NCBI GenBank assembly: GCA_963849325.1
Contig: CAWKHF010000010.1
Span: forward strand, 64,001-128,000
Reading direction: 5' to 3'
DNA from: an uncultured Planctomycetota bacterium
Lineage (GTDB): Bacteria > Planctomycetota > Planctomycetia > Gemmatales > Gemmataceae
Length of the DNA: 64,000 nt
Shown: positions 5,127-11,551 of the stretch, in pieces
Position numbering within the stretch: the stretch's first letter is position 1
How the letters are laid out: the number at the start of each line of letters is the position of its first letter
Notes under the pieces: generated by a model
Told to the model about the DNA's origin: nothing
The model's database searches: none
The model's input: the letters and a program-made list of their open reading frames with translations, nothing else
Program-made: the position numbers and the translations under genes

Positions 5127-6857
5127 TCACAGGGCACTTGCCTGATGGAGCCTGTCCGCAAAGCGGTCGATCAGTGTCTCACGCACGAGCTTGTCCACTT
5201 GGCCGAGCTGCGCGATGGCCAGGAAGCCGTAGTGGATCGTTTTTATGCCGTTGTTCCACAACCCCGGTCGGATTTGCGTCCGCGTCACGACTTGCACGGT
5301 ACGGAAAATCAAATCCCCGCTGTCCGCGACCAGCCAGGAACCGCTACGTCTCATGCCGGAGACTTCGAGAGGCGAGTAGCTCTCGCGCGTCGGGCCAAAC
5401 AGGCTCTCCTTGTAGACCAGCGCGCGGCGATTGGTGAGCACGTAGCAGGTACGCCGGGCCAACTTCCAACGCACCAGCGTCACCGCCGACACGCCCACGG
5501 ACACGAAGAACAGGCCAATCGGAAGCAGGGGGTTGCCCCGTTTCGGCGTCGCCGGGGGAACTACCATCCGCTTGCCTGGCTGGAAGCGCGGCGGCGCGAC
5601 CTTGGGCGGCGGCATCAGCGTGACGGCCAGCCAGAGCAACGCGATCAGAACCCCGACACCGCCCACCGCCAGGTAGCCGCTGCCGCGGACGAGGACCAGC
5701 TTGGGAAGCGGCTGGCCGATCCAGACCGGCATCTCCTTCGGCTCCAATCCCGCCAGTGCCTTGTCCTGGAGGTCCGCCGGGATCGAGCCGTCTGCCCGGC
5801 AGGAGATCGGAGCGTCGGCACCGGCATCGGCCTGACGCGGAGCCATCGGGACGGCGGCCGCGCAGCGGGGACAATGGACCAACTTCCCGGGCAGCGCGGG
5901 CGGCGCCTCGATGGTCGCGCCACAAACACAGACTACCGAGGCCGCCTGGGCCGGCCGCTGTCGATCGTCGCGGTTGGACGCGGCGGGTTGCGGCGTGTCC
6001 AGCGCTTGCTCGAGCGGCAGCAGCAACCTCGTGCGGATGAGGTCTTCCACTTCGCGCACCTGGTCGAGGCACATGAATCCGCGCGGGACTCGCTGGGGCG
6101 AGTTGGACAGGCCGCCGATCGAGTTTTGCTGGAGGAAGGAGCCGGTATTCAGATTGAGGGTATTTCCGGGGAGAACGAATTCGTATCCCAAGATCAAATC
6201 GCCCGCGCCGGGGACGGTGGCATGGCCCCGGCGCTCCAGGCCGAGTAGCTGCTGCGGGAGGTAGCTGCGGGCCACAGGCGCCCGTTGCCACACCGACGGC
6301 TCGACGAGCAGCGCGCGGCGGTTGGTGACGACATAGCAATATCGGCAGGATTTCGCCGGGTTGACCAGCAAGGGGAGCAGGAAAACCAGTCCGATCACCC
6401 CCAGGGCGCCGGCGAATACGTAGCCAAACAGCTGTCCGCCACCCTGTTTCGCCGGCTGCCCGCCTGCCGACGAGACCAGCATGAACCCGACGAGGATGAC
6501 GGAGAGGAGGATCAATCCCCCGCCCATCACCGGCAGCATCGGATTGCGCGGATGGACCTGAGGATTGCGCGACGGCCGACCCAGCCAGAGCATTTTTTCA
6601 TCGCCGGTCAGCTCCTTCTCGACAGCCAGGCGGAAGGAGTCCGGGATCTCCAACTCCGCGAACGTTTGCGCGGTCGGCGGCCGCAGGTTCGAGGGCGCAA
6701 CGGCGTCTACGGGGGGGACGCGGACGACGGCGCTGTTCGGTTCGCCCTGGCCGGGCAGCTGTTCGCGGCTCGCGGAGCACGACAGGTTAGCTCCTTCCGT
6801 GGAGCCACCTGCTTCGGTCGGACGACCACCCACGGACGAGAGGGTGTTTGCATTCAT
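5127..6857 (-). CDS. Membrane protein with two TM-hairpin/bacterial PH-like repeats and a central Zn ribbon
   Basis: Two repeats of E..(L/V)W.G.P...TM-TM...YV(V/L)TNRRAL...GDLI; linker CVCG...CPRC. Confidence 0.7.
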   Translation of the reverse strand: MNANTLSSVGGRPTEAGGSTEGANLSCSASREQLPGQGEPNSAVVRVPPVDAVAPSNLRPPTAQTFAELEIPDSFRLAVEKELTGDEKMLWLGRPSRNPQVHPRNPMLPVMGGGLILLSVILVGFMLVSSAGGQPAKQGGGQLFGYVFAGALGVIGLVFLLPLLVNPAKSCRYCYVVTNRRALLVEPSVWQRAPVARSYLPQQLLGLERRGHATVPGAGDLILGYEFVLPGNTLNLNTGSFLQQNSIGGLSNSPQRVPRGFMCLDQVREVEDLIRTRLLLPLEQALDTPQPAASNRDDRQRPAQAASVVCVCGATIEAPPALPGKLVHCPRCAAAVPMAPRQADAGADAPISCRADGSIPADLQDKALAGLEPKEMPVWIGQPLPKLVLVRGSGYLAVGGVGVLIALLWLAVTLMPPPKVAPPRFQPGKRMVVPPATPKRGNPLLPIGLFFVSVGVSAVTLVRWKLARRTCYVLTNRRALVYKESLFGPTRESYSPLEVSGMRRSGSWLVADSGDLIFRTVQVVTRTQIRPGLWNNGIKTIHYGFLAIAQLGQVDKLVRETLIDRFADRLHQASAL

Positions 6858-7077
6858 GGCGACTCCCCATTATCCCAAAGTACCGGTTCACGGAGCCGCG
6901 AAAGTATAGGCCGTGAATAAGAAGATCGCAAACATTGCGAAAAGGGGAGGCGCTGGAGAAACATCCGAACGGGACGCCACGGATTTCGGCGGAACCACAA
7001 CCGATGGAATAAGGGTAAGCTCCATCGAGCTTTGCAACGCATTGACCTATTTTCATGTCAATGCGTTGCAGCTTAAC

Positions 7078-8363
7078 CTAATGCGTTGCAGGCGGCGCAA
7101 AGCGAAGAATCGCCCGCTCGCCGTCGTGCCGCTCCTCTGGCTCCTCATCCTTCCAGAATCCGGGCACGATGCCAAGGGTTTCCTGCTCCATAATCAGGCA
7201 ACTCAGGTTGTGGCAGATGATCTTGCACAGCACCTCGTTCACCATCGCTATCTCGTTCTTGCTGGCCACGCTCGTCGCCGAACTTCCGCTTGATTGCCGA
7301 GAAGGTCGATTCGACGTTAGAGCGCTTGTGGTAGTGGGTCATGTACTCTTCCTGCCGCATCTGGAAGTAGTGATAGGCTTTCTCGAAAGCGCCACCGATC
7401 GCGCCTGTGCTGTTGGACTTGAAGGCGATGAACGCCTGAGCGCCGCACTTCAGCTACTTCCTCAAAGTTCTCCACGGAGAGGTAAGCCTTGTCCGCAGAG
7501 ACTTCGCCGATCTCGAAATGAGTCTTCGTCTCCTTCACGAGCGGAACGAATTGCGGGCAGTCGTGTGCATCCTTGTCCAGAATGCGGACGGCGGTAACGA
7601 CGTTCGTTTTCACGCCAGAGGCAATGTGCGTCTTCACCCAAATGCCGCGCGTCGCGGGTGATGCCGTACTTCTGATCGTACCATCGTTCATAAACGCAAG
7701 TGCTGAATCCGCTACTGTCGATGGCGAAGTCTCGCTCAACAGAGCGGAGCGGTCGGGCGCTGTAGCCGATGAGTTCCTTGAGGATCGGCGTGTAGTACGG
7801 GTCTGTCAAAAAGGCCGTCGCCTTTATGCCGGGTATCGGTCTGCTGATGAATCCCTTTTCGTAAGCCTCAAGCAAGTCCGTGGAGAAACGCCGGGCGCTG
7901 TAACCGCAGTACACCTTGTAGGCCATCGTGAAAATCGCATCAGAGACCGCGTGCGGCTTCTGGCCGGTCGTGCTTGCCGGGCGTCCCGCTCCGGCACAAG
8001 GCGGCAGAGGTCGTGCAAAAGGACGCGCAGACGACACTTCTCCGTAGCCTGCGCCATGTTGTACGCTGGCCAGTCCTGCTTGTAAGTCTTCCGCTCCGTC
8101 AGCGTAATCGTCTTCGTCTCAATCACGGTTCCGTCCGGCAGCACGTCCCGCTTGTGGACGATTGAAGCGGCGTAGTAGTGCTTGCAGGTGTTGCCGCCGT
8201 CCGTGTGGTCCAAGCAGGTGCAGGTCTTCGCTTCCAGGTTGACGCGGTACGTCGCGTTACCGCTTTTGTTCGATTGACTCGGAACGAGCCAAGTGCCATC
8301 GTTCAGACGGTTCAGGCGACAGGTCGCCGCGATGATGAGGCCGCGTTCTTCTCTGGCGTCCAT
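7078..8363 (-). CDS. DDE transposase (IS4/IS5-like, DDE_Tnp_1) with N-terminal SWIM zinc finger; about 4 frameshifts
   Basis: SWIM motif CTC..(8)..CKH; FAIDSSG, VSADKAY and YHKRSNVESTFSAIK (Y-2-R-3-E-6-K); ICHNL. Confidence 0.85.
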
Positions 8364-8368
8364 ATCAG

Positions 8369-8456
8369 TTGCCCCTTGACTACCAATCTATACTAATAGT
8401 ATAGATTGGTAGTTATTGACAATCAAGGGCAAGAGGATATATTTTTAGTATATCCT
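8369..8456. promoter_or_regulatory. Divergent promoter/operator region with perfect palindromes
   Basis: ACTACCAATCTATACTA-A-TAGTATAGATTGGTAGT (8379-8413); AGGATATA-N7-TATATCCT (8434-8456); TTGACA at 8416; AT-rich. Confidence 0.65.
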
Positions 8457-8472
8457 TTAAGGGAGTTGACTA

Positions 8473-8645
8473 ATGGACGAGAAAAAAATCGGCATGGTGC
8501 AACTACTCGGTTGTCGCTGCCGCTGTGGTCACGAGTGGTTGCCGCGCAAAGCAGAGAAGCCGCGCGTCTGTCCGAAGTGCAAGAGCAGAACTGGGATCGA
8601 CCTCGCAAGTTCGTGGGCAAGGCCAAAAAGAACGGGCAGAAATAG
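8473..8645 (+). CDS. Small Zn-ribbon protein (likely DNA-binding), one frameshift
   Basis: CRCGHEWLPR...PRVCPKCKS then, in a shifted frame, NWDRPRK; GGGAG RBS upstream. Confidence 0.7.
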
Positions 8646-8833
8646 GACGCGGATTCGGTCTGGCTCATGAACGCTTGACACGTCGATATGTCTTTTGGTT
8701 CATCCGTCGCTGAATCGTCGAGCATAGCAGCTAAGTAGCGAGTGCTACAGCGACGAATAGCACAGAACAATACTCGACGATTCTTGTTGAATATAACCTA
8801 TTAAAAACCATGAACTAATGACAGGACTCGACG

Positions 8834-10399
8834 ATGCCACAGTTAGAATTCGACTGGAATCCTGAGCCGCAAAGCCGGCTAGAACTGCTCACCGTCGAGG
8901 ACATCTTTGAACAAGCTGACCAGCAATTGCTTGAGGCTCTCAGAGAAGACCGGAGGTTAGAAAGGAAGCCTCCAGGCTACTCAGGTGAACCCCTAGGCGA
9001 GTACCTCTCCATGTGGGCCAACACCGCGCCCGATGGAGGGTTGATCTGCTTGGGAATGGAGGATGATGGTACACTGACGGGGTGCCATTCTCTCAGCCAG
9101 ATTCAACTGAATAGATTAGAGGCACTGCAAGACCTGTGCCCAGATGCCCGATGCGAGACGAAGCGCATTGGCATTAGCACGCCAGACGGAACCGCGAGTT
9201 ATGTGGTGCTTGTCCGCGTGCGTTACCAAAAAGAGCGAGTTGCCAAGACACCGCAGGGCAAAGCATTTATCCGGCGCGCTGATCGCAAACACAAACTTTC
9301 GGCAGAAGAAGTCAGGGAGCTTTCGGTTGATAAAGGCGAAGTGCAATTCGAGCAAGAGCCGTGCAAGCAGATCGTATATCCGCAAGATTACGACCATGAT
9401 GCGATTCGATCATTTGCGGCTAGTCTCCGGGAACGCCTAGAATTAGTCACTCAGATTTCTGACGAAGAGGTTCTTGCTGTAAGGCACTTGGGGACTGTTG
9501 GCACGGACGGTAAATTCCTCCCTAACATTGCTTGCGCTTTACTCTTCGCAAATGAGCCGGACAAGGTGGTTCCTGGATGTAAAATTAGGTTTCTGCGGTT
9601 CGACGGAGAAACGGAAGGTACGGGTGATAGGTTCAATGCAGTCAAAGATATTTGGATCGAAGGTCTGAGTGTCCCACGATTGATCCACAAGGCCGAACAG
9701 ATTCTTGACGCACATATCAGGACGTTTGCACCGCTTGAAAAGGACAAGAAGTTTCGTGCCTCTCCAGAGTATCCAAAGGCTGCATGGTATGAGGCCATAG
9801 TGAACGCTTGCGTTCACAGGTCGTATGGGAATGGGCTGCGGAATATGACCATTTATGTGAAGATGTTCGACGACAGACTGGTAATAGAAAGTCCTGGTCC
9901 TTTCTTGCCCTTCGTGACTCCCAAGAATATCTACGGAACATCTAACCCGCGCAATCCGAAGTTGATGGGAGCTATGTACTTCATGAATTTCGTAAAAATG
10001 GCCGCAGAGGGAACAAGACGAATGCGAGATACGATGAAAGCAGCAAACCTTCCCGAACCTGAGTTCGCGCAGAAAGAGGAAATAAGTTATTCGCGGGTTC
10101 GCGTTACCTTGCGAAACAATATCCGCCAGCGGCGAGTGTGGGTTGACCTTGATGCGGTAGCGATAGTCGGAGCTGCCCTTGCAAGTAGTTTGGACGAAAA
10201 GGAGAAACGAATCATCAACTACACTGCTGAACACGGAAAAATTAATGTAACGGACGCAGCTCGAATTGCCGAAGTCGGCTGGGCAACAGCCAAGCGGATT
10301 CTTGAACGATTGGTGAAGCGAAGTATCCTTGAACATCACCACAGCGCGAATATCGAGCGCGATAGCAAGGCATTCTACAAGCTACCAGCGGTCAAGTAA
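8834..10399 (+). CDS. Schlafen/AlbA_2 domain + HATPase_c_4 (RecG-C-like) + C-terminal wHTH protein
   Basis: EDRRLERK; SMWANTAPDGGLICLGMEDDG; EAIVNACVHRSY; DRLVIESPG; PRNPKL; C-terminal INVTDAARIAEVGWATAKRILERLV. Confidence 0.85.
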   Translation: MPQLEFDWNPEPQSRLELLTVEDIFEQADQQLLEALREDRRLERKPPGYSGEPLGEYLSMWANTAPDGGLICLGMEDDGTLTGCHSLSQIQLNRLEALQDLCPDARCETKRIGISTPDGTASYVVLVRVRYQKERVAKTPQGKAFIRRADRKHKLSAEEVRELSVDKGEVQFEQEPCKQIVYPQDYDHDAIRSFAASLRERLELVTQISDEEVLAVRHLGTVGTDGKFLPNIACALLFANEPDKVVPGCKIRFLRFDGETEGTGDRFNAVKDIWIEGLSVPRLIHKAEQILDAHIRTFAPLEKDKKFRASPEYPKAAWYEAIVNACVHRSYGNGLRNMTIYVKMFDDRLVIESPGPFLPFVTPKNIYGTSNPRNPKLMGAMYFMNFVKMAAEGTRRMRDTMKAANLPEPEFAQKEEISYSRVRVTLRNNIRQRRVWVDLDAVAIVGAALASSLDEKEKRIINYTAEHGKINVTDAARIAEVGWATAKRILERLVKRSILEHHHSANIERDSKAFYKLPAVK

Positions 10400-10495
10400 T
10401 AGAAATCAACCTTGAATGCGTTGCAGCCAGCCTCAAAACATTGCAGCTCGCCAATGCGTTGCAAAGCTGCCCCATCGGTCAGGCGCAGCGTTTTG

Positions 10496-11551
10496 TCAGA
10501 TGGGCTTGGGGATCTTGGCCTGTTCCAGGTTGAGCAAATATTGCTTACGCCGTAGACCGCCGCCATAGCCGCCGAGAGCGCCGCTCTTGTTGACGACGCG
10601 GTGACACGGGATCAGGATGCCGATTCGGTTGAACCCGTTCGCGCGGCCGACCGCCCGCACCGCCTTCGGATCGCCGATGGCCGCCGCCAACTCGTGATAC
10701 GAACGGGTCTCGCCGTAAGGGATAAGTAACAACTGCTCCCAGACTCGCCGCTGGAAGGGCGTGCCGGGGAACACCAGCGGGACCGAAAACTCGCGGAGGG
10801 TGCCGGCGAAGTAGCTGTCGAGTTCCACCCGCAGCCGTTCGAGGTGCGGGTGGGCGCCGGGCAACACCGGCACCCGGAACAACCGCCGCACCGTCTCGAA
10901 CTGAGCCTCCAGCATCCGCCGATCCGTAAACTCCAGCAAACAGACTCCGCCGTCGGTGGCACCGGCCACGAGTGGGCCGAGCGGACTCTGCAACCAGGAG
11001 AGGAACACGCAGTCGTGGCCATGGCAGTCGCCCGGCGTGCAACCGACCGACTGCCCGAACGCCTCGCGGAAGCCGCTGAGAGATTCGTAGCCACTGGAAT
11101 AGGCGGCGCCGTCCAACGTCCCTCCGTTTCGGATGTCGGTGAAGGCGACCGAAAGCCGTCGGGCACGGGTGTAAGCCTGGAACGTCATGCCGTAGTGTTT
11201 GAGGAAGTGACGGCGGACGGTCGCCGGATCGATGCCGAGAGCCTGAAGGTTGCCATCGGTGATTCGCGCGGAAGGCTCGGCCTCGACCCGCGCCAGGAGC
11301 GCCGTCGCCCATTCCGGCTGGTTCGCCAGGGCCATCGGCCGACAGCGCTTGCACGGTCGGTAGCCGGCAAAGAGCGCTGTGGCGGCTGACGGGAAGTATT
11401 CGACGTTCTTGGGCAATGGACTCCGTGCGGGGCACGTCGGGCGGCAGAAGATTCCGGTCGTGCGGACCGCAACGAAGAAGATGCCATCGTAGGCGGGATC
11501 TCGGCGGAGATACGCCCTTTCCATTTCGACGACGGGTGGAAGTGTGTTCAT
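10496..11551 (-). CDS. ada: Bifunctional Ada regulator / O6-methylguanine-DNA methyltransferase
   Basis: GIFCRPTC and GYRPCKRC (Ada Zn site), AraC HTH, IPCHRV active site. Confidence 0.93.
   Translation of the reverse strand: MNTLPPVVEMERAYLRRDPAYDGIFFVAVRTTGIFCRPTCPARSPLPKNVEYFPSAATALFAGYRPCKRCRPMALANQPEWATALLARVEAEPSARITDGNLQALGIDPATVRRHFLKHYGMTFQAYTRARRLSVAFTDIRNGGTLDGAAYSSGYESLSGFREAFGQSVGCTPGDCHGHDCVFLSWLQSPLGPLVAGATDGGVCLLEFTDRRMLEAQFETVRRLFRVPVLPGAHPHLERLRVELDSYFAGTLREFSVPLVFPGTPFQRRVWEQLLLIPYGETRSYHELAAAIGDPKAVRAVGRANGFNRIGILIPCHRVVNKSGALGGYGGGLRRKQYLLNLEQAKIPKPI

Follow-up and report, generated by a model that had tools for sequence, protein, structure and literature searches.

Small insertion sequences (ISs) are usually treated as elements that carry a transposase gene only; IS903, of the IS5 family, makes 9-bp target duplications, and Tn7 makes duplications of 5 bp. 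ISPam1 and ISPko1 of Paracoccus have been assigned to the IS903 group (PMC3281130), and the main text of that article gives no duplication length for the group. Passenger genes are carried by transporter ISs of the IS1595 and IS66 families, which combine one transposase, inverted ends and a target duplication, and a statement from 2021 confined passenger-carrying IS forms to two families other than the one described here. Tn7-like transposons with defence cargo have differentiated multi-site ends and a variable, defence-rich cargo (Benler et al. 2021, PMC8649781). In this study, we analyzed a 64-kb stretch of the Gemmataceae contig CAWKHF010000010.1 (hereafter the window, to which all coordinates refer unless a contig or locus is named), in which an element of 3,441 bp at 7028-10468, with perfect 17-bp inverted ends, encloses the three genes proposed in an initial annotation: a broken gene for a SWIM-type/DDE transposase, a divergent Zn-ribbon gene with a frameshift, and a gene for an AlbA_2-HATPase_c_4 protein that is intact. 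We consider it very probable that this element is an immobilised passenger-carrying IS (a 'transporter IS') and that its lineage, which is unclassified, is related to the IS903 group (IS5 family).

Compared with the systems above, the family of this element has the layout of a transporter IS, with one transposase, inverted ends, a target duplication and passengers that move as a unit, but its transposase is of another family than those of IS1595 and IS66. It resembles the Tn7-like elements in its differentiated multi-site ends and variable, defence-rich cargo, and differs from them in having one small transposase, no TnsABC(D/E), no attachment-site targeting and a 9-bp duplication. We class it as a transporter IS built on an IS903-like transposase, and the family is apparently undescribed; within the texts reached by a full-text literature search we found no description of such elements or of their layout, in line with the 'little-described' type that had been supposed initially.

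The element in the window and its setting

The terminal inverted repeat (TIR) AGCTTTGCAACGCATTG occupies 7028-7044 and recurs as an exact reverse complement at 10452-10468, as the initial annotation had noticed. When up to three mismatches were allowed, AGCTTTGCAACGCATTG matched at these two positions only in the 64-kb window, and two or more matches were obtained in none of 100 shuffles. Outside the TIRs, the direct repeat CCATCG is present at 7022-7027 and 10472-10477, with GCC separating the right TIR from the right copy. The three extra nucleotides on the right had been noted before; the repeat is best read as a 9-bp target-site duplication, GCTCCATCG (7019-7027) and GCCCCATCG (10469-10477), equal at 8 of 9 positions, a reading preferred over CCATCG because 9 bp is the duplication length of the transposase family. 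The tip of the window element itself reads AGCTTTG. The GC content is lowest in the cargo (0.475-0.52), intermediate in the transposase gene (0.55-0.60) and highest in the flanks (0.64-0.71), and the low GC of the cargo compared to the flanks is counted as a sign of foreign origin. The features are as follows.

7019-7027, no strand: left target-site duplication GCTCCATCG, 8 of 9 positions equal to the right copy
7028-7044, plus strand: TIR of the transposase end, perfect 17-bp match to 10452-10468
7033-7090, no strand: three 11-bp AATGCGTTGCA sites of the transposase end, at positions kept in relatives
7078-8363, minus strand: transposase pseudogene with a CxCx9CxH module and a DDE_Tnp_1 core with YREK, interrupted by four frame switches
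8379-8413, no strand: perfect 17+17-bp palindrome (35 bp), candidate operator, overlapping the -10 of the transposase promoter
8416-8445, plus strand: sigma-70-like promoter of the Zn-ribbon and cargo side, TTGACA-16-TATATT, 11 of 12 positions, a consensus match only
8473-8670, plus strand: frameshifted Zn-ribbon microprotein gene, 65 codons, divergent from the transposase gene
8834-10399, plus strand: intact AlbA_2-HATPase_c_4 passenger of 521 amino acids (domains by Pfam), with a probable C-terminal winged helix-turn-helix (wHTH)
10415-10463, no strand: 11-bp sites of the cargo end, direct copies at 24 and 44 from the tip
10452-10468, minus strand: TIR of the cargo end, 17-bp match
10469-10477, no strand: right target-site duplication GCCCCATCG, 8 of 9 positions equal to the left copy

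The insertion point is 18 bp beyond the stop codon of an Ada/MGMT-like gene; it is also upstream of a gene of 576 codons, at a distance of about 160 bp. The right neighbour (10496-11551, minus strand) encodes 351 amino acids and appears by eye to be an Ada/AraC-type regulator fused to a methylguanine methyltransferase; orthologues were found in 22 of the 31 related genomes searched, the window's own genome counted. At four orthologous loci of this neighbour, the left-hand gene, the AlbA_2 gene and the transposase were all absent within 8-10 kb.

Transposition of whole units and variable cargo in relatives

In the congeneric genome G002, a 3,812-bp stretch is present on two different contigs with 100% identity, and another of about 4.4 kb occurs twice with 99.9% identity; all four copies are bounded by GGCTTTGC tips at both ends. 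Perfect 9-bp duplications (TCCGGCACG, TCTTCGAGG and GTGAGGGGT) flank three of the four copies. The 3.8-kb unit carries an intact 420-amino-acid transposase gene together with a GmrSD/HEC-06 nuclease gene, and the 4.4-kb unit carries LRAT-like and trypsin-like genes. These identical units at different sites are direct evidence that the transposase gene and its passengers transpose as one piece, as expected of the passenger-carrying unit with a single transposase that had been predicted for the window.

Further relatives were collected by a profile scan of one genome per species, which gave 80 related loci. A first, generic search for TIRs returned many chance pairs and was dropped in favour of a search anchored on the GGCTTTGC tip, which consequently misses elements with diverged tips. 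GGCTTTGC ends with an 8-9-bp duplication were found in 21 of the 80 loci (11 at 9/9, 2 at 8/9 and 8 with an 8-bp repeat offset by one). These bounded relatives are 2,466-7,146 bp long and all have at least 1.05 kb (1,048-5,862 bp) upstream of the transposase gene, confirming that these relatives do not end near the transposase start with a TIR of their own. Two more bounded elements (3,982 and 5,634 bp, both 9/9) were present among 40 metagenome loci. With the A1 profile, the family was detected in 9 of 41 related genomes (the window's counted), in 8 of 24 genomes of the same family and in 0 of 15 of the sister family, with 13 matches in the window's genome and 20 in G002.

The ends of these elements share an architecture beyond the TIR. 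For 24 elements, the 11-mer at tip positions 6-16 was taken and further copies were sought in the ends and in the interiors. At the cargo end, direct copies lie at 24 and 44 in most elements, at 35/55 in two elements and at 57 in one, and at least one direct copy is present in 17 of the 24 (counted from the listing); at the transposase end, the copies are inverted and lie at 33 and 53, with at least one in 21 of the 24 (counted likewise). In total, 63 matches occurred in 6.2 kb of ends (10.1 per kb) compared to 0.17 per kb in the interiors. The site cores co-vary, since they are equal within an element and different between elements. In the window, the transposase end has sites at 7033-7043 (within the TIR, minus orientation) and at 7060-7070 and 7080-7090 (plus orientation), the latter two being the inverted copies at 33 and 53 from the tip, and 7033-7046 and 7057-7070 can form a 14-bp hairpin. 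The cargo end has sites at 10453-10463 (within the TIR) and 10415-10425, with a degenerate copy at about 10436-10446. Each end has three phased sites, in an arrangement that differs between the transposase end and the cargo end. This points to a multi-site transpososome with distinguishable ends, and the N-terminal zinc region of the transposase may be the part that binds the 11-bp sites.

The window's own genome contains two sister copies on contig C6, of 6,075 and 3,715 bp, with 81-84% DNA identity to the window element. In both, similarity to the window is confined to 7022-8373 (one end with the transposase gene) and 10419-10475 (the far end), so that homology ceases where the transposase gene starts, and in both the transposase gene is broken at places other than those in the window copy. 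One carries a PDC-M06A/B-like gene, an XRE-like gene, a fragmented gene for an MmeI-like N6 methylase and a broken PIN gene; the other has a gene for 283 amino acids without assigned family and a Bro-N/PDC-S13-like gene. Neither carries the Zn-ribbon gene or the AlbA_2 gene. As the C6 copies share with the window only the ends and the transposase gene, the exchangeable slot extends over about 8374-10418 and includes the Zn-ribbon gene.

To survey the cargo, Pfam was searched with 103 open reading frames (ORFs), taken from the two C6 copies and 20 related elements, and PADLOC with the 50 longer ones among them. A Pfam family was assigned at E<=0.001 to 24 of the 103, including PIN, DUF6941, a ClpP-like SDH protease, XRE-Peptidase_M78, AAA_21 plus RloB, an MqsA-like protein, AAA_14-DUF4143, an N6_N4 methylase fused to an Mrr-like nuclease, and HSDR_N_2-N6_Mtase. 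At E<=1e-5, PADLOC matched 15 of the 50 ORFs, spread over 10 of the 22 elements, with PD-Lambda-2_B, AbiLi/AbiLii, PDC-S01, type II/III methylases, capP/RmrA-like and mad2/mad5-like profiles among the matches. Thus the variable and often defence-like cargo slot suggested by the initial annotation was found in the C6 copies, in the relatives and, as GmrSD, in G002.

Several further observations were made on copies of this kind. In the 6-kb C6 copy (locus L011, 2637-3482), a gene for 281 amino acids lies between the transposase-end sites and the transposase stop codon; PADLOC reads it as one fusion of PDC-M06A (residues 1-75) and PDC-M06B (115-263). Its place beyond the transposase stop indicates that cargo has a second position, downstream of the transposase gene, where five relatives too have 295-451 bp. 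The 6,075- and 3,715-bp members stand head to tail (C6:440984-450800; L011 2485-12301), and the 9-mer CCGCCATGC flanks the pair on both sides and also separates its two members, three occurrences in all; either a second insertion went exactly into the duplicated target of the first, or this is an old tandem dimer with a later cargo swap. A geneless mini-element of 97 bp in the same genome (C7:194471-194567; L012), with two family-type tips (GGCTTTGCCACGCATT...) and no clean duplication, looks like a deletion derivative or a miniature inverted-repeat transposable element. The genome also holds a 2,514-bp element (C6, approximately 233445-235958) in which a distant paralogue is intact and whose tip, GGCTTTGTTGCC, is near that of ISPam1, and a 2,000-bp element (C4, approximately 211200-213200) with the perfect 9-bp duplication CGTTGAGAC. 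The smallest bounded elements, of about 2.47 kb (L040 6984-7493 and L065 7089-7559), have an ORF for 156-169 amino acids beside the small regulator gene, without a Pfam family and helical by eye, which may encode an accessory protein rather than cargo.

The transposase and its divergent companion gene

The transposase gene of the window (minus strand, 7078-8363) is interrupted by four frame switches, near residues 120, 240, 305 and 363 in the family numbering, and two of its pieces matched Pfam DDE_Tnp_1. The piece at 7145-7360 holds YHKRSNVESTFSAIK, that is, Y-x2-R-x3-E-x6-K, the exact YREK signature reported initially. A search with the N-terminal piece found 477 homologues at E<=1e-3 (608 candidates scored), mostly of 415-430 amino acids; those few with a name at source are all called 'transposase' (Zavarzinella, Gemmataceae, Thermoanaerobaculia). 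Among 24 aligned homologues, the CxCx9CxH module (C48, C50, C60 and H62), the residues D216, D291 and E351, and YHKRSNVESTFSAIKRKFG, which holds Y-x2-R-x3-E-x6-K, are invariant, and all of the zinc, DDE and YREK residues are still present in the pieces of the window transposase, the CxCx9CxH module in ORF 7824-8363. Four full-length homologues scored 59-73 bits with DDE_Tnp_1. The signature of the N-terminal SWIM-type finger announced for this protein is present in the window and invariant in the 24 homologues. The Pfam SWIM (PF04434) score of the window copy is 18.4 bits, below the cut-off of 19.6; three of the four full-length homologues scored 16.8-18.6 bits, P0007 had no match, the congeneric homologue reached 25.5, and some database homologues carry a precomputed PF04434 assignment.

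The filing under the 'IS4 superfamily' proposed by the initial annotation proved too loose. The best NCBIfam model for all four full-length homologues was IS5_2 (NF033579), at 97-108 bits, with IS4, IS1182 and ISNCY models far lower: IS4_1 gave 16-28 bits against a cut-off of 115, so membership in IS4 was rejected, as was membership in IS1182 and ISNCY, both of which scored below IS5_2. In a plasmid collection, 158 records matched the transposase. Identity was below 60% throughout and coverage never reached 80%, so that there are no close plasmid relatives in that collection; the matches listed, those of ISPam1 and ISPko1 included, are IS5-family transposases that aligned over residues 72-388 with about 25% identity. 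The end of ISPam1 (about 1.05 kb) is AGGCTTTGTTGCGCTA (AGGCTTTGTTGC), and GGCTTTG is common to it and the family tip GGCTTTGC; in the ISPam1 copy examined only the tip was confirmed, with no clean 9-bp duplication (5/9 by eye). On sequence comparison, the nearest classified relatives are the IS903 group of the IS5 family, not IS4. With that group the family shares the DDE_Tnp_1 core with YREK, IS5_2 as best model, the GGCTTTG tip and, for IS903, the length of the duplication. It differs in its low identity (about 25% over about 290 residues; 108 bits against the IS5 cut-off of 140), in about 200 extra N-terminal residues with the SWIM-type zinc module, in two extra phased sites per end, the orientation of which is unlike at the two ends, and in size, being 2.5-7.1 kb with passengers and a transposase of about 425 amino acids, compared to about 1.05 kb with one gene for about 300.

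An AlphaFold model of the transposase (predicted local distance difference test score, pLDDT, 69; residues 264-322 poorly modelled) had its best Foldseek matches with the ISCth4 transposase (4.7e-3) and the P element and Tn5 transposases (0.14-0.8), which would fit a DDE transposase fold but are too weak to use. A sequence search of solved structures returned one meaningless match (E 0.84).

The divergent Zn-ribbon microprotein described initially is present in the window (ORF 8473-8670), frameshifted; its four Cys are kept, the frameshift lies just after the second CxxC, and the conserved tail NWDRPRKF is out of frame, in the frame ending at 8645. For a census, the pattern C..C.HxW ... CxxCxSxxW was sought at the 65 loci with a full transposase N-terminus and at least 500 bp upstream. 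An intact Zn-ribbon ORF in divergent orientation precedes the transposase gene by 100-200 bp at 18 of these 65 loci, and the pattern occurred at no other position in 1.1 Mb of locus DNA, the row listed as 'elsewhere' for L051 being the same ORF, flagged since that locus has two transposase copies. The Zn-ribbon gene is an old, recurrent companion, as the transposases of its holders are only 40-50% identical to the query. The earlier notion of a fixed module of Zn ribbon and SWIM-DDE transposase did not hold, given these 18 of 65 loci, the lack of the gene in both C6 copies and the RHH-like small genes seen by eye at the same position in at least 11 other loci; all three RHH-like genes tested were NikA-like in Pfam, below cut-off. 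Between the two genes of the window, sigma-70-like promoters stand back to back: the plus strand has TTGACA-16-TATATT, and the minus strand has TTGATT-17-TATACT, with TTGATT at 8426 and TATACT at 8398. The palindrome at 8379-8413 covers the transposase -10. A related palindrome is present in L046, and imperfect ones were seen by eye in several other loci. The palindrome may act as an operator through which the small divergent protein represses the transposase.

Alternative readings and meaning of the family

Of the two domains announced for the passenger, both scored above their Pfam cut-offs (SLFN_AlbA_2, 32.0 bits vs 25.3; HATPase_c_4, 64.2 vs 26), but the announced C-terminal wHTH gave sub-threshold matches only, and a few homologues carry precomputed wHTH families. 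The passenger has 1,298 homologues at E<=1e-3 (8,000 scored), the best at 74% identity, with 'RecG' and 'DNA-binding' as source names. A single-sequence scan of the genome contigs for the AlbA_2 protein gave 90 pattern matches, none of which was confirmed. The sole AlbA_2 homologue with this transposase family nearby is at L164 (6001-7533), where a C-terminal transposase fragment lies upstream (5221-5436) and an N-terminal fragment downstream (9893-10156) on the same strand, as if the gene were flanked by remnants of an element. In PADLOC, residues 54-437 matched positions 57-445 of a 1,121-position pAgo profile (E 4.6e-48), and there were weak matches to pAgo-associated SIR2 profiles. Identity as an Argonaute was rejected, since only the N-terminal third of the pAgo profile, a shared N-terminal module, is matched; no PIWI/MID region or partner gene was found, and the slot has no other gene.

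Several results weigh against the reading of the element as an immobilised transporter IS related to IS903. No empty site was found among the four loci of the right neighbour, the closest orthologue of which (72% identity) is differently surrounded. The fit to IS5/IS903 is not clean, with all four full-length homologues missing the IS5 cut-off of NCBIfam, about 25% identity and 200 extra N-terminal residues; IS903 is not known to have subterminal sites, unlike this family, and Foldseek with the pLDDT-69 model gave no match in the PDB at E<=1e-3. Among the relatives, 59 of the 80 loci are unbounded (contig ends, diverged tips, decay), L040 and L041, which are one element at two sites, probably have their tips about 10 bp further out, and a minimal form of 1,589 bp without cargo exists (L039, in a 1,621-bp contig). 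One of the four G002 copies lacks a duplication; it is one of the 100%-identical GmrSD pair (L229 8474-12285), its twin has one, and recombination between copies or an adjacent deletion is suggested. Finally, in a profile scan of 80 AlbA_2 loci (855 kb), this transposase family lies near the AlbA_2 homologue in only one, so the passenger of the window is a sporadic capture.

A rival reading is that there is no unit at all, but a simple IS of about 1.4 kb beside host genes, with the far inverted repeat a stray solo end or a chance match; a minimal form of the family does exist, and 79 of the 80 AlbA_2 loci have no such transposase nearby. We regard this as highly improbable, because the window has no further end-like sequence at up to three mismatches, the 9-bp duplication lies outside the outer ends, the far end bears the family's own pattern of direct-copy sites, the whole 3.4 kb is far lower in GC than its flanks, the sister copies have exactly the two ends in common and different interiors, and whole units are duplicated in the congeneric genome. 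Taking the element as one unit, the window copy is, as read from the assembled sequence, an immobile fossil, no longer able to move itself because of four frameshifts in the transposase gene and one in the Zn-ribbon gene. It is unlikely that the element is instead still active, its frameshifts being assembly or polishing errors in a repeat, or programmed. The genome is an assembly of 14 contigs with a marker completeness of only 84.7%, which can accompany indel errors, and the congeneric pair of about 4.4 kb (L233 5759-10173 and L234 6155-10566), 99.9% identical with different perfect duplications, includes a transposase that reads as 261 + 170 amino acids at L233. A split transposase in a duplicated unit means that a split gene can still be mobilised, or is misread; the cause could be mobilisation in trans, programmed frameshifting or an error of assembly. 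In the window, however, four switches fall within 1.3 kb, and the two sister copies each have different ones, so that the three related copies of this genome are broken at different places. The neighbouring genes of 1.7, 1.56 and 1.05 kb have no frameshift, both flanking genes, the passenger and two distant transposase paralogues are intact, and the genome has 175 open frames of at least 1,000 amino acids. A general assembly fault is unlikely for these reasons; the target duplication is mismatched (8/9), as expected of an old insertion, and full-length transposases in a single frame are the rule among the homologues.

The cargo of sister and related elements abounds in defence genes, and the AlbA_2-HATPase_c_4 passenger matches the pAgo profile at E 4.6e-48 and, weakly, the pAgo-associated SIR2 profiles. 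That the passenger itself is an anti-phage or anti-mobile-element defence gene, as had been suggested, is possible but rather doubtful, as the pAgo match is limited to the N-terminal third, the family is very large (1,298 matches), bears the names 'RecG' or 'DNA-binding' and occurs mostly outside these elements, and no partner gene lies within the slot.

With the window element taken as an immobilised member of a passenger-carrying family, an active member encodes one transposase of about 425 amino acids, with an N-terminal region of about 200 amino acids containing CxCx9CxH followed by the DDE/YREK core. This protein would bind three phased 11-bp sites per end, one terminal and two inner ones 20 bp apart, the inner sites repeating the terminal one directly at the cargo end and in inverted orientation at the transposase end, and it inserts the whole unit with a 9-bp staggered target cut. 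The exchangeable slot extends from the transposase start to about the last 60 bp of the far end and often opens with a small divergent DNA-binding gene, Zn ribbon or RHH-like, the product of which may repress the transposase promoter via the palindrome over its -10. Here, the frameshifted copy is stuck, and its intact passenger stays as a resident gene, possibly in nucleic-acid sensing or defence.

We tentatively propose, as a finely balanced reading that tilts slightly against, that the SWIM-DDE elements form a distinct, ancient lineage in many phyla (Planctomycetota, Acidobacteriota, Myxococcota, Binatia, Proteobacteria and some archaeal bins), sister to the IS903 group and serving as a general shuttle for defence and toxin-antitoxin genes, set apart by differentiated three-site ends, an interchangeable regulator (Zn ribbon or RHH) that gates the transposase promoter, and cargo slots that flank the transposase gene on either side. 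If this is true, they would count as a separate, new IS family or group and be among the smallest natural single-protein systems that move several kb of cargo.

Overall, in this family a single IS903-like transposase of 425 amino acids repeatedly moves 1-6 kb of cargo in soil bacteria, including restriction-modification, abortive-infection and toxin-antitoxin genes and genes without known function, which offers a compact route for the spread of defence genes within and between genomes. The ends and the three-site pattern delimit the cargo exactly and can serve as a marker for new defence candidates, and the phased asymmetric sites and small regulators provide testable entry points to the question of how such an element distinguishes one end from the other. 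The interest of the window copy lies in a captured passenger that has been left behind as a resident gene.

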